7,627 bases of DNA from a virus (taxonomy: Duplodnaviria; Heunggongvirae; Uroviricota; Caudoviricetes), in IMG/VR virus record IMGVR_UViG_2695420382_000010, positions 1 to 7,627 of that record, one strand, 5' to 3'. Both the position numbers and the translations under genes were made by a program. Below, in pieces: positions 1-7,003 of this stretch (positions within the stretch are counted from its first letter, which is position 1; every line of letters begins with the position of its first letter). The notes under the pieces are model-generated. The model saw nothing but the letters and a program-made list of their open reading frames with translations. It did not search any database and was not told where the DNA came from.

Positions 1-225
1 CGCATACTTAAAAGCCCTGCTAATCGGACTGATGTCTGATGCCATTCCGAAAGCACACAAGACCGAAGCAATAAACCTCCAGTCCGTTCTGCTTATCTTC
101 GATTCATGACAGCCAATCATCTTTGCCAGACCGCGCTGGGTAAGCGTTGACAGGTTGATGAGTAAATCTGTTTCTGCGCGATCAACATCGCGCTGTGATA
201 GTTTGCTGTAACTTGTTTGTTCCAT
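1..225 (-). CDS. cII: CII-like transcriptional activator, partial (start codon at 225-223; the gene runs off the left edge of the window)
   Basis: Not in the ORF track because it is open at the window edge. Minus-strand translation from ATG (complement of 223-225) gives MEQTSYSKLSQRDVDRAETDLLINLSTLTQRGLAKMIGCHESKISRTDWRFIASVLCAFGM..., 75 codons with no stop. The pattern resembles lambda CII (helix-turn-helix with ...SQISRW..W...) and the gene sits downstream of cro, nutR and a tR1-like hairpin as in lambda. Confidence 0.6.
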   Translation of the reverse strand, partial: MEQTSYSKLSQRDVDRAETDLLINLSTLTQRGLAKMIGCHESKISRTDWRFIASVLCAFGMASDISPISRAFKYA

Positions 226-234
226 TTCTTACTA
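203..234 (+). promoter_or_regulatory. PRE-like CII-dependent promoter: TTGC-N6-TTGT direct repeat flanking the -35 position, then a 12-nt spacer and the -10-like TTACTA; it would drive antisense-to-cro transcription toward cI
   Basis: TTGC at 203-206, 6-nt spacer, TTGT at 213-216, then 12 nt and TTACTA at 229-234. The architecture matches lambda PRE (TTGC-N6-TTGC), and as in lambda it overlaps the cII start codon on the opposite strand. Confidence 0.4.
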
Positions 235-242
235 TTTCCATA

Positions 243-277
243 GGTAAATAATCACTAATACTCATCTTTCGATGAGT
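243..277 (-). terminator. tR1-like hairpin between nutR and cII (7-bp stem, GAAA loop, A/U-rich tail)
   Basis: Minus-strand RNA reads ACUCAUC-GAAA-GAUGAGU (plus 260-277) followed by AUUAGUGAUUAUUUACC. The position matches lambda tR1. The U-tract is imperfect, so this may be a partial or Rho-assisted terminator. Confidence 0.3.
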
Positions 278-289
278 GCTTAATTAGTT

Positions 290-324
290 ACCGCGTTGTC
301 GGCGGTGCAGATTGATAAAGAGCG
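290..324 (-). promoter_or_regulatory. nutR: boxA plus P22-type boxB hairpin
   Basis: On the minus strand, boxA is CGCTCTTTA (plus 316-324) and boxB is ACCGC-CGACAAC-GCGGT (plus 290-306; 5-bp stem, 7-nt loop). It lies immediately downstream of the cro stop, as lambdoid nutR does. The boxB matches the P22 nutR type as I recall it. Confidence 0.6.
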
Positions 325-334
325 GATCCGCTTA

Positions 335-550
335 TTAAGCGGCTTTGTGTTCAGGCGGGAACACGTCATCAAGACTGACTTTTGCGCCTAACTTGTTTAG
401 GCACGCAACAAGAGCACGGCATGTTTTAAGGTCTGGGAAGCGACGACCAGATTCCCAATGTCCGATAGCTCCCTGTGTGCATCCAACTGCCTTAGCAAGT
501 GTTGTTTGAGAGATATTCAGTGACTCTCGATATTTTCGTAGGTTGCTCAT
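335..550 (-). CDS. cro: Cro-like HTH repressor (71 aa)
   Basis: Track ORF 335..721, trimmed to the internal Met at 550 (MSNLRKYRESLNISQTTLAKAVGCTQGAIGHW...) because a GGAGGG Shine-Dalgarno sits 4 nt upstream and the longer form would run through the operator region and the cI start. It has an XRE-type helix-turn-helix and is divergent from cI across an operator region. Confidence 0.85.
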   Translation of the reverse strand: MSNLRKYRESLNISQTTLAKAVGCTQGAIGHWESGRRFPDLKTCRALVACLNKLGAKVSLDDVFPPEHKAA

Positions 551-661
551 ATGCCCTCCATAGTAACCATGAAACAATAATACGATATGTACTTTTGGAA
601 TGCAAACAAAAAATACATCTTGTGCATGGATGGTTTTAGTACAGAGCGTAATAATAAGGAT
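551..661. promoter_or_regulatory. OR-type divergent control region between cro and cI (operators, PR and presumably PRM)
   Basis: 110-bp AT-rich spacer between divergent cro and cI starts. It contains the 19-mer at 577-595 that is shared (17/19) with the PL region, and an ACAAGATG core at 614-625 that recurs in OL at 2918-2925. Confidence 0.6.
577..605 (-). promoter_or_regulatory. PR-like sigma70 promoter for cro (-35 TTGCAT, 17-bp spacer, -10 TATTAT)
   Basis: On the minus strand, TTGCAT is the complement of 600-605, the spacer is 17 bp, and TATTAT is the complement of 577-582. The predicted leader of about 20 nt carries GGAGGG before the cro ATG. Confidence 0.5.
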
Positions 662-1321
662 ATGAAAATGAAATGGTATGAACTGGCTAGATCCAGAATG
701 AAAGAGCTCGGCATAACTCAAGAGAAGTTAGCTGAAGAGCTTGGTATGACGCAGGGTGGAATTGGTCACTGGTTGCGCGGATCTCGTCATCCATCTCTTG
801 ACGAGATTGGTGTGGTGTTTAAATACCTTGGTATTGATAACGTCTCATTCAACCACGACGGTACATTCTCACCTGTTGGCGAATACTCATCTGCCCCCGT
901 TAAAAAACAATATGAGTACCCTGTTTTTTCTCATGTTCAGGCCGGGATGTTCTCGCCTGAGCTTAGAACCTTTACCAAAGGTGATGCGGAGAGATGGGTA
1001 AGCACAACCAAAAAAGCCAGTGATTCTGCATTCTGGCTTGAGGTTGAAGGTAATTCCATGACCGCGCCAACAGGATCCAAGCCCAGCTTTCCTGACGGAA
1101 TGTTAATTCTCGTTGACCCTGAGCAGGCTGTTGAGCCAGGTGATTTCTGCATAGCCAGACTTGGGGGTGATGAGTTTACCTTCAAGAAACTGATCAGGGA
1201 TAGCGGTCAGGTGTTTTTACAACCACTAAACCCACAGTACCCAATGATCCCATGCAATGAGAGTTGTTCCGTTGTGGGGAAAGTTATCGCTAGCCAGTGG
1301 CCTGAAGAGACGTTTGGGTGA
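662..1321 (+). CDS. cI: CI-type prophage repressor (N-terminal HTH domain plus C-terminal S24/LexA-like autocleavage-dimerisation domain), 219 aa
   Basis: Track ORF 587..1321, trimmed to Met 662 (MKMKWYEL...; Met 668 is an alternative) with AAGGA at 656-660. The C-terminal ~130 aa ([14 protein letters not shown]...[10 protein letters not shown]...[12 protein letters not shown]) match the lambda CI C-terminal domain as I recall it. The N-terminal domain is different and carries the helix-turn-helix [22 protein letters not shown]. Confidence 0.9.
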
Positions 1322-1452
1322 TGGATGGAAAAGTACGCCGGGCGTAGAGTGACCAGCAGATTTAAAGCCGACATTCATTGCATTCAATGCAAAAAGAAAC
1401 TTTATGCACTTTAACGATATAATGACTTACGCCATATATAACGGATTGATAT

Positions 1453-2283
1453 ATGAAACTTAATTTTTACGCCTCCTATCAACAAAACGGTAAGGAACGT
1501 TTTCCTATTGATTTGGTGTCAGGCTTATCCGAACAGGTAATCAAAGCAAAAAACAATGCCTTCGAGATTGATGATTACTTTATATTTGCTCATCACATTA
1601 GCAGAGAATGTTATTTAATAACAAAAACATATGACTCAGACTTGGTTAAAAGGGTCAATAAAACCACGCTCTCAGTCGATGAACTCAAAAACGTATTAGG
1701 CAGTGACGAAACGCTAGCGTTTCCATCATTCCTGTTGATCAAAGATGGCGTCATTGGTTATGCCTGCACTCAGCACGGGCCAAGAGTTCGTGAGCTTGAA
1801 ATTTACTTATCTAATAAATTGAACATAACAAAACCATTCAAGCTATGTTTAGAACCTCTGATGAGAGACGTAACTAGGGATGATGCTCTCGACATGGAGT
1901 TCATCGGTAGAACAACCTTAAGAGTTGAGTCTGGATCCAAGCTTTTGTCTCCTTTGCTGAGAGCTGCCGGGATCGAAACCATCGAAGAAGAGCTTCTTGA
2001 AGGTGTGGAAATAACAATAAAACCAAAAAGAATGAGAAATATCAGCAACATGTCCAAGGAGCTGATTCGTAATGCCGATGATTCTCATAGTGACATACAT
2101 CTTAAAGCGAAGGAGTACGCAGCTGATTTGCTAACTGACTACTACCTTTCAAGCAAGGGGCACATCAGTGCCAACATTTACAAATCGACAAATGAAGAAA
2201 TTGCAGAGGAAATGGAAATTTGCTACATAAGAATGAAAAATGTTATAATGAAAAGTTATAAAGATTTTTGTGAAGACGAGTAA
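1453..2283 (+). CDS. rexA: RexA homologue (abortive-infection/exclusion sensor component), 276 aa
   Basis: Same strand as cI and immediately downstream of it. Its length is close to lambda RexA (279 aa) and it shares blocks recalled from lambda RexA: FPSFL, EPLMR..T.DD, FIGRTT, I.IKPK, YLS.KGH.SA, EIAEEM. Confidence 0.85.
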   Translation: MKLNFYASYQQNGKERFPIDLVSGLSEQVIKAKNNAFEIDDYFIFAHHISRECYLITKTYDSDLVKRVNKTTLSVDELKNVLGSDETLAFPSFLLIKDGVIGYACTQHGPRVRELEIYLSNKLNITKPFKLCLEPLMRDVTRDDALDMEFIGRTTLRVESGSKLLSPLLRAAGIETIEEELLEGVEITIKPKRMRNISNMSKELIRNADDSHSDIHLKAKEYAADLLTDYYLSSKGHISANIYKSTNEEIAEEMEICYIRMKNVIMKSYKDFCEDE

Positions 2284-2313
2284 GAGTGAATACCTAAGGG
2301 TAAGGGAGGGCGT

Positions 2314-2751
2314 ATGAGAGAGCACAAAATCGTTCCCGGCGTATTGCTATTCGCTTTACCAATACTTTTCACTATTGTCGTTTACTGCATTTTCCGTAGC
2401 CTTACCTCAGCAATTTCGTTCACCGAGCACAGAGACGCGCTGGGAGCAGCTATATCTTCATATGCAGGGACCACTATCGCAATACTCATTGCCGCGTTGA
2501 CGTTTGTCATAGGCATCAGAGGAAAAAACATGCAAAAAGTAAAGGCATACGGATATATGACATCTGTCATTATTCTGTATGCACTGACCTTTGCGGAGCT
2601 TGGCATTGTTTTTTTTATGGGGTTATTTTTAATGGCCACAAGCAAGCAACCAATTGCTTTGTTGCCATCCTTATCGATCGGCCTATCAGCTTCATCAATG
2701 ATGCATATAAGCATCATACTTTTCCAACTCCTAAAATTCTCAAATAAATAA
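2314..2751 (+). CDS. rexB: RexB homologue (small polytopic inner-membrane protein partner of RexA), 145 aa
   Basis: GGGAGGG Shine-Dalgarno at 2303-2309. The protein is hydrophobic with about four predicted TM segments and shares blocks recalled from lambda RexB: MPGV, H/EHRD.LGA..SSYAGT.IAILIAALTF, YGYMTSV.I.YAL.F.ELG. It is followed directly by an intrinsic terminator. Confidence 0.85.
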   Translation: MREHKIVPGVLLFALPILFTIVVYCIFRSLTSAISFTEHRDALGAAISSYAGTTIAILIAALTFVIGIRGKNMQKVKAYGYMTSVIILYALTFAELGIVFFMGLFLMATSKQPIALLPSLSIGLSASSMMHISIILFQLLKFSNK

Positions 2752-2753
2752 CG

Positions 2754-2780
2754 ACCCGGCCTCAGCGCCGGGTTTTCTTT
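2754..2780 (+). terminator. tIMM-like Rho-independent terminator ending the cI-rexA-rexB operon
   Basis: GC-rich hairpin ACCCGGC (2754-2760), loop CTCAGC, GCCGGGT (2767-2773), followed by the T-tract TTTTCTTT, starting 3 nt after the rexB stop. Confidence 0.8.
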
Positions 2781-2960
2781 GCCTCTCGAACGCCCACCTA
2801 AAACACATAACAAATTGTATTTATTGAAAAATTGATAGATACAACTTGCTAAACAGTGCAATTCTGATCCCTCACCTACCAAACAATGCACCCCTGCAAA
2901 AAATAAATCCATAAAATACAAGATGGTATAAAAAACCAACAACATTTAGAACATTTTGTA

Positions 2961-2989
2961 TTGACTCAATAAAGTACACATCGTACTAT
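2961..2989 (+). promoter_or_regulatory. PL-like sigma70 promoter (-35 TTGACT, 17-bp spacer, -10 TACTAT) with an overlapping operator
   Basis: TTGACT at 2961-2966 and TACTAT at 2984-2989. The downstream CATCAGCAGGACGCA resembles the lambda PL transcript start. The segment 2971-2989 is 17/19 identical to the PR spacer and -10 segment, suggesting OL1. Confidence 0.55.
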
Positions 2990-3035
2990 TTAGCCATCAG
3001 CAGGACGCAGGAAGCCAAACGGAACAGATTGGCAG

Positions 3036-3069
3036 GCTCTTTAACTTCGATGGGGCGCTGACAAAGCGC
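3036..3069 (+). promoter_or_regulatory. nutL: boxA plus P22-type boxB hairpin
   Basis: boxA GCTCTTTAA at 3036-3044 and boxB GCGC-TGACAAA-GCGC at 3055-3069, lying between PL and the N start. The boxB matches the P22 nutL type as I recall it. Confidence 0.7.
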
Positions 3070-3188
3070 AAACAGATATCAAACGAGATGGGTTTGGCGG
3101 TGATGTGAATTGCAGCTGCAACGACAGCAACCAGAAGATCAGCACCTGGCGCATCACCACCAAAGCCATTTCACATGAGGAAAACATC

Positions 3189-3497
3189 ATGACGGTAATC
3201 GTGTACGGAAAATCAACATTTGCAGGAAATGCCAAAACTCGCCGTCATGAGCGGCGCAGAAAGCTGGCTATCGAGCGTGATGCCATCTGCAACATCATCG
3301 ATTCGATCTTCGGCACAGACAGCGAGGAACCTGTTCAGAAAGACACGAGAAAGCGTTTAAGCCTTTCTGAAAAAGCAATATCACTCGGAAGCCTTCGCTG
3401 CAAGAAGGCAGATGAATACAGTGGAAGTATTTGCCTGCCAAACATAGCCATTTACGCGGCAGGCTACAGGAAATCCAAACAGCTGACAGCAAGATGA
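3189..3497 (+). CDS. N: N-type transcription antiterminator, P22 gene 24-like, 102 aa (arginine-rich motif near the N terminus)
   Basis: Track ORF 3105..3497, trimmed to Met 3189 with GAGGA at 3176-3180. The start MTVIVYGKSTFAGNAKTRRHERRRKLAIERD contains the arginine-rich boxB-binding motif and matches the P22 gp24 N terminus as I recall it. It is the first gene after PL and nutL. Confidence 0.85.
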   Translation: MTVIVYGKSTFAGNAKTRRHERRRKLAIERDAICNIIDSIFGTDSEEPVQKDTRKRLSLSEKAISLGSLRCKKADEYSGSICLPNIAIYAAGYRKSKQLTAR

Positions 3498-3555
3498 CTT
3501 GTGTTGGTCGCCAGAAAATGAAATTAGACAGCAAACCACTTATTTGAGGTGAGAT

Positions 3556-4026
3556 ATGACAAAATCATGGAGCGTACCGTTTCCTGAATCAGAAACTGAA
3601 CATGATGGAATGCCTGTTTTCTGGAGATTCCAGGCGACAGTTGAAGAAGATGGGATAAAAATATTCGCACTTCAATATATAGCTTTTCATCAGACAGAGC
3701 ATTATGCATGGTTGGTTCCTGCGCATTGGATTGTTAATTTTAAACCAGCACCAAATCAGTGGTTACAGGAATGGAAACAAAGGAGAAATAGATATGCAAT
3801 TAAGAAAGTAGCAAAAAATGCAGAAAGATCTTTTGCATTCCCAACGAAGAAACTTGCTATTGAAAGTTTATTGCGTCGAAAAAAATACCATTTGGTGAGG
3901 ATCAAACAAGATTTGGCTGTCGTATCAACTCTTGTCGATGGGATGAAGAATATTGATACATCAACACCAGATATTGAATATAACTTTGGACACAACCAAG
4001 AAACAGAAAATTGGGTATTTTATTAG
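3556..4026 (+). CDS. Hypothetical protein, 156 aa; AT-rich orphan gene in the N-cIII slot
   Basis: Track ORF with GAGGTGA Shine-Dalgarno at about 3546-3552. GC content is about 30-37% against about 50-55% in cI and cIII. It has an aromatic-rich N-terminal half and a basic then acidic C-terminal half. I recognise no family. Confidence 0.7.
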   Translation: MTKSWSVPFPESETEHDGMPVFWRFQATVEEDGIKIFALQYIAFHQTEHYAWLVPAHWIVNFKPAPNQWLQEWKQRRNRYAIKKVAKNAERSFAFPTKKLAIESLLRRKKYHLVRIKQDLAVVSTLVDGMKNIDTSTPDIEYNFGHNQETENWVFY

Positions 4027-4101
4027 TACAAATAAGCACTGTGTATCCATTCCAACGAGTGAATACACGGAGCAATTTAAAGCGTAAATAAGGAGCACAC
4101 C

Positions 4102-4266
4102 ATGCAATATGCCATTGCAGGGTGGCCTGTTGCTGGCTGCCCTTCCGAATCTTTACTTGAACGAATCACCCGTAAATTACGTGACGGATGGAAACGCCTT
4201 ATCGACATACTTAATCAGCCAGGAGTCCCAAAGAATGGATCAAACACTTATGGCTATTCAGACTAA
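4102..4266 (+). CDS. cIII: CIII (inhibitor of FtsH-mediated CII degradation), 54 aa
   Basis: Not in the track because it is under 60 aa. ATG at 4102 with AGGAG at 4091-4095. It translates to MQYAIAGWPVAGCPSESLLERITRKLRDGWKRLIDILNQPGVPKNGSNTYGYSD, which matches lambda CIII as I recall it. Confidence 0.8.
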   Translation: MQYAIAGWPVAGCPSESLLERITRKLRDGWKRLIDILNQPGVPKNGSNTYGYSD

Positions 4267-4348
4267 ATTCACTATCGCCACTTTTATTGGCGATGAAAAG
4301 ATGTTTCGTGAGGCCGTCGAAGCCTACAGAAAATGGAGGTCAAAATGA
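4235..4348 (+). CDS. kil: Kil-like small protein (host cell-division inhibitor family), 37 aa
   Basis: This is the C-terminal part of track ORF 4109..4348, with Met at 4235 (MDQTLMAIQTKFTIATFIGDEKMFREAVEAYRKWRSK) preceded by AGGAG at 4221-4225. It overlaps the cIII 3' end out of frame. The N terminus matches lambda Kil as I recall it. Confidence 0.6.
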   Translation: MDQTLMAIQTKFTIATFIGDEKMFREAVEAYRKWRSK

Positions 4349-4533
4349 TTCCGGTAGAGCTGGCGAAAACTCCAGAGTTAAGTCGATTAAAAAGAGAATA
4401 TCACATTGCTGAGGCTCGTTACTGGCGTAAAGCGGGAGATAAATCAAAGAAACAACTTTGTTTATGGCAGGCACAAAGAGAGCGCATGAATGAGCGCGAG
4501 TTTCTTTCCGTCCCATCCGAATTACCATTCTGA
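4345..4533 (+). CDS. Hypothetical small basic protein, 62 aa
   Basis: Track ORF 4333..4533, trimmed to Met 4345 with GGAGG at 4335-4339. Its ATG overlaps the kil stop (ATGA), which suggests translational coupling. The protein is Arg/Lys-rich: MIPVELAKTPELSRLKREYHIAEARYWRK... Confidence 0.5.
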   Translation: MIPVELAKTPELSRLKREYHIAEARYWRKAGDKSKKQLCLWQAQRERMNEREFLSVPSELPF

Positions 4534-4541
4534 GGCAAATT

Positions 4542-5198
4542 ATGGGAACTGCGACATTAATACTCGGTGAATCTGGTACCGGAAAATCAACCAGTTTAAG
4601 AAACTTACCACCAGAAAAAACATTAATCATACAGTGCATAAACAAACCGCTACCATTCCCATCAAGTGATTGGGTTAAAATAAGCAAGGAAAACAATAAC
4701 GGGAACATATACAGAACAGATAATACTGAAAATATTGTAAGGGCACTAATTAATGCTCCGCATGAAATTGTAGTTATTGATGATTATCAGGCTGTGATGG
4801 TTAACGAACTAATGGGTAAATGCAATGAGAGAGGATATGACAAATTTACCTCGATAGGGAAAAACGCATGGGATGTGTTCAGGGCTGCTGGTGAAGGGGC
4901 AGACACTCGGAGAGTTTATATTCTGGCACACACGCAAACTGATGATTTTGGCTATACACGAATGAAAACCGTCGGAAAACTAGTCGATTCGACACTTGTT
5001 CCTGAAGGTTATTTCACTATCGTGTTAAGAACTCACGTACAGAACGGAAAATACTCATTTTCCACCCAGACAAACGGGAGTGATTGTTGTAAAAGTCCGG
5101 TTGGGATGTTTGATAGTCAGTTTATTGATAATGATTTGTACGAAGTAGATAAAAAAATATGCTCTTACTATGGGTTTGAAAAAAATGAGACGTCTTGA
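4542..5198 (+). CDS. P-loop NTPase, RecA-core-like; putative Sak4-type phage recombination ATPase, 218 aa
   Basis: Walker A GESGTGKST at residues 9-17 and a Walker B-like IVVIDD near residue 77. The size and position, where lambdoid phages carry their recombination module, fit Sak4-family single-strand-annealing ATPases. The family assignment is inferred, not confirmed. Confidence 0.7.
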   Translation: MGTATLILGESGTGKSTSLRNLPPEKTLIIQCINKPLPFPSSDWVKISKENNNGNIYRTDNTENIVRALINAPHEIVVIDDYQAVMVNELMGKCNERGYDKFTSIGKNAWDVFRAAGEGADTRRVYILAHTQTDDFGYTRMKTVGKLVDSTLVPEGYFTIVLRTHVQNGKYSFSTQTNGSDCCKSPVGMFDSQFIDNDLYEVDKKICSYYGFEKNETS

Positions 5199-5790
5199 GG
5201 TATCCGGCGAGAGATTTGGCAATTTAGTTGTTATTGGTGATGCAGGAATGCGTGGTACTCAAAGGTTGGTAAACTGTGTGTGTGACTGCGGAGTAGTTTG
5301 TGTTAAACAGCTTGGCAACCTCCGTTCAGGGCACACAAGAAGTTGTGGTTGCTCACGCTCATCTACAACAAAAGCAAGAAAAAACAAACATGGCATGTAT
5401 GGAACGCCAACATACAAGTCATGGTCTTCAATGTTAACAAGATGCTTCAATGAAAGAAATAGTAAATACAAACACTATGGAGGAAGAGGAATAACTGTTT
5501 GTGAACGGTGGCTGGACTTTAAATTATTTTTCGCTGATATGGGAAAAAGACCAGACGGAACTACATTGGGAAGAATTGATAACAATGGTAATTACGAACC
5601 ATCAAATTGCGAATGGCAGAAAAGTATCGAGCAAGCAAGAAATAAGAGTAATACCGTATTATTTAAATTCAATGGAGTGCTGGCAACAATTTCAGAGCAC
5701 TGCGAAAAAACTGGATTAAACCCAAGCACGGTAAGAAGCAGGATTTACACATATCATTGGTCTGTAGACAAGGCCTTATCAAAAGGATAA
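5185..5790 (+). CDS. Cys-rich putative nucleic-acid-binding / homing-endonuclease-like protein, about 201 aa (start ambiguous: 5170 or 5185)
   Basis: Track ORF 5170..5790. It overlaps the end of the upstream ATPase gene. It has an N-terminal Cys cluster (NCVCDCG...SGHTRSCGC), a central YKSW..M..RC.N....Y..YGGRGI.VCERW block and a GRIDNNGNYEPSNCEW block, which I recall from free-standing phage endonuclease-like genes, and a C-terminal HTH-like segment. Confidence 0.65.
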   Translation: MRRLEVSGERFGNLVVIGDAGMRGTQRLVNCVCDCGVVCVKQLGNLRSGHTRSCGCSRSSTTKARKNKHGMYGTPTYKSWSSMLTRCFNERNSKYKHYGGRGITVCERWLDFKLFFADMGKRPDGTTLGRIDNNGNYEPSNCEWQKSIEQARNKSNTVLFKFNGVLATISEHCEKTGLNPSTVRSRIYTYHWSVDKALSKG

Positions 5791-5794
5791 AAGC

Positions 5795-6382
5795 ATGAGC
5801 AACGTGATTTTTACTTATAACGAAGAAGCAGCACTGACCGCAGGGCAAGGTGGTTTTATTAACGAAACTGGCGCTCATATCATTACCATTACTGAAGCAG
5901 AACTAAAGCAATCAGAGAAAGGAGCCAAATTTATTGAGTTTTCTGGAGAATCCGACGACGGACGTAAAATCCAATATCTTAGCGTTTGTGTTCAGAAAAA
6001 TGACGGAACGGAAAACAAGTTTGGTGCAAACGTCGTTCATGCCATGATGGGGTGTGTTGGGATTAAGCAGTTAACGCAACATATGGTTTCCGCCAGTAAA
6101 TTTGTTGCTCCTGAATTTCATGGAAAGAAAATCGGGTTAGTGCTCCAGAAAGTATTAACCACAAACAAAAAGACTGGCGCAGACAGCTACCAGATGGAAA
6201 TACGCATCCCGTTTATTGCACAAACAGGTCAAACCCTTAAAGAAAAGTCGGAAGGCAAGCAACCAGAAACTATCGCCAACATGGTTGCCAGCCTCAAAGA
6301 TAAAGACAATCGCTCTAAAAACGTAAGCCAGAATCATGCAGATGATTATGGTTACAGCCAGAACGATTACCCTCCTTTCTGA
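5795..6382 (+). CDS. Hypothetical protein with an SSB-like acidic/aromatic C-terminal tail (candidate ssDNA-binding partner of the ATPase), 195 aa
   Basis: AAGGA Shine-Dalgarno about 9 nt upstream. The C terminus ...DDYGYSQNDYPPF resembles the SSB / gp2.5 tail (D-rich, ending in P-F). The body has no recognisable canonical SSB OB-fold signature, so the function is a hypothesis. Confidence 0.6.
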   Translation: MSNVIFTYNEEAALTAGQGGFINETGAHIITITEAELKQSEKGAKFIEFSGESDDGRKIQYLSVCVQKNDGTENKFGANVVHAMMGCVGIKQLTQHMVSASKFVAPEFHGKKIGLVLQKVLTTNKKTGADSYQMEIRIPFIAQTGQTLKEKSEGKQPETIANMVASLKDKDNRSKNVSQNHADDYGYSQNDYPPF

Positions 6383-6405
6383 TTACTGAAAATAAGGCTC
6401 CCATT

Positions 6406-6702
6406 ATGCCAGCGCCTCTGTATGGTGCGGATGACCCGCGCAACTGCTCCGGTAGCTCCAAGGCGGAGGTGCTGGATAAATTCAGGAAAAACTACGACCG
6501 GATAATGTCGCTACCGCAGGAAACGAAAGAGGAAAAGGAATTTCGCCATTGTATATGGCTTGCAGAGAAAGAAGAACGCGAGCGAATTTACCAGACATCA
6601 ATCCGACCATTCCGCAAAGCCACATATACCCACTTCCCTGAATATATCGACCCGCGCCTGCGTAATTACCGCTCACGCTATGGCGCTATCAGTAATGACT
6701 GA
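6406..6702 (+). CDS. Hypothetical protein, 98 aa
   Basis: Track ORF with AAGG about 9 nt upstream, co-directional with the operon. The protein is charged and Arg-rich. Its size and position are compatible with a P22 Abc-type anti-RecBCD protein, but the sequence is not recognised. Confidence 0.55.
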   Translation: MPAPLYGADDPRNCSGSSKAEVLDKFRKNYDRIMSLPQETKEEKEFRHCIWLAEKEERERIYQTSIRPFRKATYTHFPEYIDPRLRNYRSRYGAISND

Positions 6703-6712
6703 GGAATTAACA

Positions 6713-7003
6713 ATGAAAACAATGAAGCTAAACATCGACCTCGGCAAATACGTTATTACCGGAACCAAACACGACCTGATTCTTAGCGAAAGAGGAATTA
6801 TCAAAGAAGGTGAGAATGCAGGGAAAGAAACACTAAGTCGTATCGGTTATTACAGCAAGTTTGAGCATCTGGTTAAAGAGTTATGCAACCGTGAAATCCT
6901 GTTATCTCAGGCGCAGACGCTACAGGATATTCAGCAGCATATCGAAACTTTAGGTGTGTCACTTAGCATGGCCGTTGACCAGTTCGTTGAGAGTAAATCA
7001 TGA
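6713..7003 (+). CDS. Hypothetical protein, 96 aa
   Basis: Trimmed from track ORF 6560..7003 to Met 6713, with GAGGA at 6701-6705 straight after the upstream stop. Sequence [22 protein letters not shown]... Confidence 0.55.

Follow-up and report, generated by a model that had tools for sequence, protein, structure and literature searches.

The N antitermination system of phage P22 is known down to the complex of N with its boxB RNA, which has been solved with the peptide NAKTRRHERRRKLAIERDT and the RNA GCGCUGACAAAGCGC (PMC11480772). The gp24 protein of the Salmonella P22-like phage L is a natural N hybrid, in which a P22-type N-terminal part and boxB occur with a different C-terminus. It shares only 75 residues at its N-terminus with P22 gp24, the boxB sequences are reported to be apparently identical, and the two gp24 proteins are functionally interchangeable (PMC8022706). 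P22-type N and nut sites in lambda-type surroundings are already known and are a well-documented form of lambdoid mosaicism. Here we describe the N gene and nut sites of a window of 7,627 bases, the entire contig CXCV01000163.1 of the draft assembly GCA_001252355.1, in which N and both boxB hairpins are of the P22 type and cIII, kil and the C-terminal domain of cI are of the lambda type. We compare it mainly with P22, lambda, and the phage genomes Lambda_ev203 (LR597650, Jouyvirus) and VT2-Sakai (AP000422).

The window very probably comes from a lambdoid Escherichia coli prophage, of which it holds the immunity and early-left region. Its close matches are all from E. coli, and its + strand corresponds to lambda's leftward direction. 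The left part contains, in order, cII, nutR, cro, the right operator region (OR), cI, rexA, rexB and a terminator-like hairpin, followed in the middle by the left operator region (OL) with pL, nutL, N, a gene for a 156-amino-acid protein, cIII and kil. Families were assigned to the window genes with Pfam, PHROGs, PADLOC and Rfam, and the region appears to be built of interchangeable modules. The parts of the N and nut system are as follows.

3055 to 3069, + strand: nutL boxB, GCGCTGACAAAGCGC, base-for-base identical to P22 nutL boxB.
291 to 305, - strand: nutR boxB, CCGCCGACAACGCGG, base-for-base identical to P22 nutR boxB.
3035 to 3045, + strand: nutL boxA, GGCTCTTTAAC, with a spacer of 9 nucleotides (nt) to boxB, as in P22, which has CGCTCTTTAAC.
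314 to 324, - strand: nutR boxA, CGCTCTTTATC, assigned by reading the sequence, with an 8-nt spacer to boxB, as in P22, which carries CGCTCTTTACC here.
2961 to 2989, + strand: pL-like promoter (TTGACT, 17 nt, TACTAT) in the OL region, from a promoter scan.
3189 to 3497, + strand: N antiterminator, 102 amino acids; Pfam PF25694 N_peptide over residues 1-102, 139.8 bits (cut-off 27.9).

The preliminary description of this DNA had assigned both boxB hairpins to the P22 type, and the alignment bears this out; its nutR boxB, given as 290-306, was correctly located but had one flanking base too many on each side. The nutL boxB is the RNA of the P22 N-boxB complex (PDB 1A4T), and its sequence has no second match in the window at three or fewer mismatches. 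An exact 15-mer match is expected about 1e-5 times by chance in 7.6 kb; the boxB matches are homologous and not due to chance. Both 15-mers fold computationally as hairpins, nutL boxB with a stem of five base pairs (bp) and a GACAA loop (-7.1 kcal/mol), and nutR boxB with only 4 bp paired by the program because the fifth position is C.A. A CGCUCUUUA-like boxA lies 8-9 nt 5' of each boxB. The open reading frame (ORF) map, the promoter scan and the P22 alignment place nutL between pL and N and nutR between cro and cII, so that the layouts pL-boxA-boxB-leader-N and cro-boxA-boxB-cII are those of P22. The alignment with P22 starts at the pL -10 hexamer and the transcript start. An Rfam scan of the window returned no boxA, boxB or nut match; apart from two hits at chance level, the cIII thermosensor was all it gave.

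The arginine-rich motif of N was likewise held to be of the P22 type, which agrees with the protein alignment: residues 1-42, including NAKTRRHERRRKLAIERD, match P22 gp24 at 40 of 42 positions, and the motif itself (residues 14-31) is identical. Residues 14-32, NAKTRRHERRRKLAIERDA, are identical at 18 of 19 positions to the boxB-binding peptide of the solved complex. A PDB sequence search with N gave nothing meaningful in a library that has no chains under 20 residues and would omit the 19-residue 1A4T peptide. BLASTP found no match between this N and lambda N at E <= 0.01. Over its full length the protein is 66.7% identical to gp24, and both proteins end in ...YAAG(Y/H)RKSKQ(L/I)TAR. The differences from P22 lie in the DNA, which is 73.7% identical over pL-nutL-N, in a leader of 122 nt where P22 has 159, and in the immunity genes, cIII and kil, which are not those of P22. 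Phage L gp24, to which the window N is likened from the published description, differs in coming from a Salmonella P22-like phage.

If the established mechanism of lambda and P22 applies, the pL and pR transcripts would both carry boxA and boxB, the arginine-rich helix of N (NAKTRRHERRRKLAIERD) would bind the boxB hairpin with its GACAA loop, Nus factors would gather at boxA, and RNA polymerase would become resistant to termination. Read-through of terminators would then allow expression of cIII, kil, and the recombination and replication genes. The P22-type module would consist of three separate pieces, namely the nutR boxB 3' of cro, the nutL boxB 3' of pL, and codons 1-80 of N. Since P22 has the identical motif in N and the identical boxB at each nut site, the RNA specificity should be P22-like, and we strongly infer a P22-like antitermination specificity, for which phage L offers a precedent (PMC8022706). 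The N expected to act on a prophage carrying this window is that of the P22 type, not that of the lambda or H-19B type. This is relevant to predicting cross-activation between co-resident prophages, including Shiga toxin (Stx) phages with the same repressor. The window is also a clean example of a protein-RNA specificity pair that stays matched while the immunity cassette between the two RNA sites is swapped; the significance goes little beyond annotation.

The lambda-type parts of the window are the following.

4102 to 4266, + strand: cIII, 54 amino acids, 53/54 identical to lambda cIII; Pfam Lambda_CIII, 105 bits.
4089 to 4147, + strand: cIII thermoregulator RNA element; Rfam RF01804, 88.5 bits (gathering score 50), E = 3.6e-21.
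4235 to 4348, + strand: kil, 37 amino acids (lambda Kil has 47); Pfam Lambda_Kil, 76.5 bits.
4036 to 4337, + strand: lambda-type block, 97.6% identical in two pieces that correspond to lambda 34005-34045 and 33228-33480, the ea10 interval between 4076 and 4085 being gone.
662 to 1321, + strand: cI repressor, starting at 662 or 668; Pfam HTH_3 and Peptidase_S24.

The identity of cIII is 98% to lambda and 66% to P22 C3. Kil is identical to lambda Kil at 32 of its first 34 residues and then diverges; its C-terminus differs because homology to lambda stops at 4337, the point at which gam starts in lambda. Both genes had been called lambda-type in the preliminary description, and alignment puts them with lambda just as it puts N and both boxB sites with P22. 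In place of the missing ea10 interval (lambda 33481-34004) the window has just 8 bases, 4077-4084. The cI C-terminal domain had also been assigned to lambda, and it could hardly be closer: residues 82-217 are identical to lambda cI 102-237 at all 136 positions, including the VQAG cleavage-site region. The repressor is therefore of the lambda type in its S24 self-cleavage and oligomerisation domain, encoded from nt 911 on, and not in its DNA-binding domain, since the N-terminal 81 residues are only 33% identical to lambda cI; the window does not have lambda immunity.

Segment by segment, the lambda-like DNA consists of 911-1322 (98.3%), 4036-4076 (97.6%) and 4085-4337 (97.6%), with a weak match of 74% from rexB to OL. 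P22-like DNA occurs at 288-324 (94.6%, nutR), at 2989-3314 (73.7%, from the start of pL through nutL into the 5' part of N) and at 6403-6716 (87%, abc2). Changes of ancestry relative to lambda and P22 fall at about 325-335, 911, 1322, 2917-2989, about 3314, 4036, 4076/4085 and 4337, the change at 4076/4085 being the ea10 deletion. The earlier count of at least three recombination joints was correct as a minimum and is an undercount, as more than three of these changes lie within the span described. These joints are not particular to the window: the cI fusion is fixed in the immunity group as a whole and is also present in VT2-Sakai. The two sets of similarities differ in age: identity is about 98% between the lambda-type blocks and lambda, and about 74% between the P22-type N/nutL block and P22, a block that is 94.7% identical to the E. 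coli phage Lambda_ev203. As its identity to P22 is only about 74%, the P22-like DNA reflects an old lineage within E. coli that carries this type of N, and not a recent exchange with P22. "P22-type" is a statement at the level of the family, which does not imply such an exchange.

We used 80 IMG/VR loci with a 100%-identical Cro, plus further loci of the analysis, and scored each for its nutR boxB, the N-terminal type of its N, and its nutL boxB. A score for each of the three was obtained in 79 loci, and in every one of these they agreed, with 51 loci of the H-19B/933W type, 16 of the P22 type, 12 of the lambda type and none mixed. In the 16 loci, the same cro and cI go together with an N and two boxB sites that are all of the P22 type. 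In 84 of 90 loci, cI has the same N-terminal part, joined to a C-terminal part of the lambda type. The complete agreement among the 79 loci points to continued selection for matched N and boxB parts, and lends indirect support to the predicted N-dependent read-through of terminators that is specific for its own nut sites.

The mosaic could also be caused by the assembly, if a draft contig had joined reads of two or more lambdoid prophages of one genome at shared repeats. The window is short and makes up an entire contig in a draft assembly, and many E. coli strains hold several lambdoid prophages with shared segments, with up to 11 matching places per genome. Such a chimera is nevertheless extremely improbable, given that three independent assemblies have the same order and that the 16 loci above show the same junction of cro and cI with P22-type N and boxB. 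In the first of these assemblies (locus L007, SRR7500947), window positions 1-6716 have a collinear match of 98.6% identity. A second (L005) is 99.8% identical over window 1-3548 within a contig of 184 kb, and the third (L010) is 99% identical over 1936-6716 except at 3494-4035, where it has different genes.

The comparison with VT2-Sakai locates the boundaries of the N/nut parts. Over 1-1319, which covers cII, cro, OR and cI with its lambda-type C-terminal part, the window is 90% identical to VT2-Sakai, and the two are also similar in OL and pL up to boxA, in the 3' end of N, and in the lambda-type cIII and kil. VT2-Sakai differs in having an H-19B/933W-type N-terminus of N with matching nutL and nutR boxB hairpins, other genes where the window has rexAB, and ea10 and Red, which it retains. 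Within the left 1,320 bases the difference is confined to one feature.

241 to 320, - strand: nutR specificity patch of about 80 bp, the sole stretch of 1-1320 that differs from VT2-Sakai.

This patch has 25-42% identity to VT2-Sakai, the flanks have 88-100%, and the alignment breaks directly after boxA. On the other side, the pL-N region is similar to VT2-Sakai through the terminator, OL, pL and boxA and again breaks immediately after boxA; similarity returns at about 3431 (N codon about 81) and extends beyond the N stop codon. Only two N/nut stretches therefore differ between the window and VT2-Sakai, the nutR patch and about 385 bp that run from the nutL boxB through the leader to N codon 80. 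Because the breaks lie after boxA and at N codon 81 or so, the specificity determinant behaves as a split cartridge, bounded by a boxA on either side and by the conserved tail at the C-terminus of N. The boxA sequences and the conserved 3' end of N may have served as crossover linkers for module exchange. That the RNA specificity of N is exchanged as such a split cartridge among the P22, lambda and H-19B/933W types within one immunity group seems to us quite unlikely. If it were true, the three-way match in 79 of 79 loci would be a natural experiment on the co-selection of a protein-RNA pair 2.7 kb apart. The principle is textbook modular phage evolution, and only the fine mapping of the boundaries and the population count could be new.

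Several observations weigh against a P22-like, working system. The nutL boxA GGCTCTTTAAC opens with G and not C, with an intact GCTCTTTA core; the same leading G is found in the nutL of Lambda_ev203 and VT2-Sakai. In residues 43-102 the identity of N to P22 gp24 reaches only about 45%, and as a result the host-factor requirements may differ from those of P22. The 79 concordant loci are not independent, since many are near-identical prophages and sequences, not exchange events, were counted. Finally, the window is truncated at both ends, inside cII on the left and inside an ea22-like gene on the right, so that the prophage may or may not be complete or inducible.

The divergence of N leads to a second explanation, in which N binds P22-type boxB and has a functional specificity other than that of gp24, for example with Nus factor or RNA polymerase needs adapted to E. 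coli and not to Salmonella. Besides the low identity of residues 43-102, this is favored by the last 22 residues, which are 86-91% identical to the N of E. coli Stx phages with a different RNA-binding motif, and by the 3' end of the gene, which is 80-98% identical to VT2-Sakai DNA. The C-terminal tail, CLPN..YAAGYRKSKQLTAR, is common to the H-19B/933W-type N proteins, and the diverged C-terminal 60% of N is expected to be the part that contacts the host machinery. However, these differences concern host factors and not RNA specificity, and would refine the P22-like prediction rather than replace it; moreover, phage L gp24 substitutes for P22 gp24 in spite of an unrelated C-terminus (PMC8022706). 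We consider a functional specificity different from that of gp24 possible, though on the unlikely side.

The truncated contig, the non-consensus first base of the nutL boxA, the short Kil of 37 amino acids and the absence of ea10 could instead be signs of a decaying cryptic prophage, in which the N and nut parts are relics that no longer work together. This is very unlikely. The genes of the region are all intact, with plausible start sites, and both the boxA variant and an N with 93% identity are present in the deposited phage genome Lambda_ev203. A 37-amino-acid Kil is annotated as Kil by RefSeq in another prophage, and N agrees with both boxB sites in all 79 loci. The reading of the window as a matched, P22-like N/nut system in lambda-type surroundings is the one we prefer.

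The combination of P22-type N/nut with lambda-type cIII and kil is already present in Lambda_ev203. Its DNA is 96.6% identical to the window over cII and nutR, 94.7% over pL-leader-nutL-N, including the GGCTCTTTAAC boxA, and 97.6% over cIII and kil, and its N protein is 93.1% identical. Lambda_ev203 differs from the window in its immunity cassette (cro is annotated as 933W Cro-like, and cI is another), in the lack of rexAB homologues, in retaining ea10 and lambda gam-bet-exo, and in having a sieB-like gene after N. A literature search for a paper describing Lambda_ev203 gave nothing relevant. With lambda itself the window shares the overall gene order, the C-terminal 136 amino acids of cI, cIII, the start of Kil, the cIII thermosensor and the position of rexAB; it differs in the type of N and nut, the N-terminal domain of cI, cro and the operators, and it has none of the lambda genes ea10, ral, sieB, gam, bet or exo.

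The genes and sites of the immunity region and the adjoining left end are these.

1 to 225, - strand: 5' part of cII, running off the left end; Pfam Phage_CII, 90.1 bits.
335 to 550, - strand: cro, 71 amino acids, helix-turn-helix; Pfam HTH_3.
551 to 667, either strand: OR region with divergent pR and pRM; promoter-like site at 606-577 and operator-like sites such as AGTACATATCGTATT.
1453 to 2283, + strand: RexA homologue, 276 amino acids; Pfam RexA, 156 bits; PADLOC RexA, 385 bits; 41% identical to lambda RexA by BLASTP.
2314 to 2751, + strand: RexB homologue, 145 amino acids; Pfam RexB, 134 bits; PADLOC RexB; 46% identical to lambda RexB by BLASTP.
2753 to 2780, + strand: hairpin resembling an intrinsic terminator at the end of the cI-rexAB operon, from a terminator scan.

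In bins of 40 nt, cII is 88-100% and cro 92-100% identical to VT2-Sakai, and cII also lies inside the 96.6% match to Lambda_ev203. The immunity cassette of cro, OR, cI and OL is of the VT2-Sakai type. The AGTACATATCGTATT site at pR matches the site overlapping the pL -10 hexamer (AGTACACATCGTACT) at 13 of 14 positions. Operator-like sites are common to OR (551-661) and OL (2897-2989) and differ from the lambda and P22 operators, and we regard their assignment as operators as putative; three operators are annotated on each side in VT2-Sakai. The hairpin at 2753-2780 is kept in VT2-Sakai, where a terminator of the pRM transcript is annotated. RexA and RexB are encoded as a pair 3' of cI in the repressor operon and make up a putative exclusion system. 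In a prophage of E. coli FDAARGOS_943 the same rexAB variant (93% at the DNA level) follows the true cI of lambda and occurs together with lambda cro, N and nut sites. The variant is absent from other prophages of the window's immunity group, among them VT2-Sakai and one in E. coli AR_0058 (L013).

The leader between nutL and N contains one prominent structure.

3085 to 3172, + strand: long hairpin of the N leader, 3' of nutL and 5' of the ribosome-binding site of N, from a computed fold.

The fold of 3070-3195 (126 nt) has an energy of -45.9 kcal/mol and a z score of -6.2, and none of 200 shuffled sequences was as stable. P22 has almost the same stem at the base (GAGATGGGTTTGG / CCAAAGCCATTTC), while the inner part is wholly different and the tip varies. 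The hairpin lies where lambda has its RNase III site, and by analogy with lambda it may be such a site. In the AR_0058 prophage (NZ_CP021689), which has the same cro, cI, nutL and N as the window, the tip of the hairpin (window about 3103-3154) is replaced by a tRNA-like sequence at 8584-8665 of that locus. ARAGORN calls this element an 82-nt tRNA-Pro(tgg) and RefSeq a "tRNA-OTHER", and a small extra ORF lies between it and N. The element is absent from the window and from 15 other P22-type loci, and ARAGORN found no tRNA in the window.

After kil come genes for a 66-amino-acid protein, a Sak4-like ATPase and HNH-like and SSB-like proteins, then abc2, and the right end contains DUF5405, DUF2737 and the start of the ea22-like gene. 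The Sak4/SSB/Abc2 recombination module thus stands where lambda has Red (gam-bet-exo). The gene at 5170-5790, between those for the ATPase and the SSB-like protein, encodes 206 amino acids, matches PHROGs families annotated as HNH endonuclease, and overlaps the 3' end of the ATPase gene by 29 nt. It is missing from two related loci (L003 and L005), in which the ATPase has 226 amino acids and window 4674-5792 is without a match; it looks like a homing-endonuclease-type insertion. A similar gene is called "Nmad5 family" by RefSeq. Directly 3' of N, the 156-amino-acid gene (3556-4026) belongs to PHROG 1636, of unknown function, and has no match in Pfam, PADLOC or NCBIfam. This slot varies among otherwise near-identical prophages: in L005 it holds a gene with an Nmad5 domain, and in L010 two different small genes. 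The NCBIfam models contained none that matches N, cIII or Kil.

No phage-collection record and no complete E. coli genome covers at least 80% of the window. A source outside E. coli was considered, but a search for exact protein matches led to the contig itself and to near-identical prophages. At a coverage of at least 80%, the N-nutL segment is found in 217 of 5,426 complete E. coli genomes and the left 960 bases of the window in 633 of them. A Cro scan of a contig collection with one genome per species gave 6 loci. Two loci (L014 and L015) are contigs with an E. coli-type cro that were binned in metagenome-assembled genomes labelled Segatella copri and "Bacillota bacterium"; these are probably mis-binned fragments of an Enterobacteriaceae prophage.

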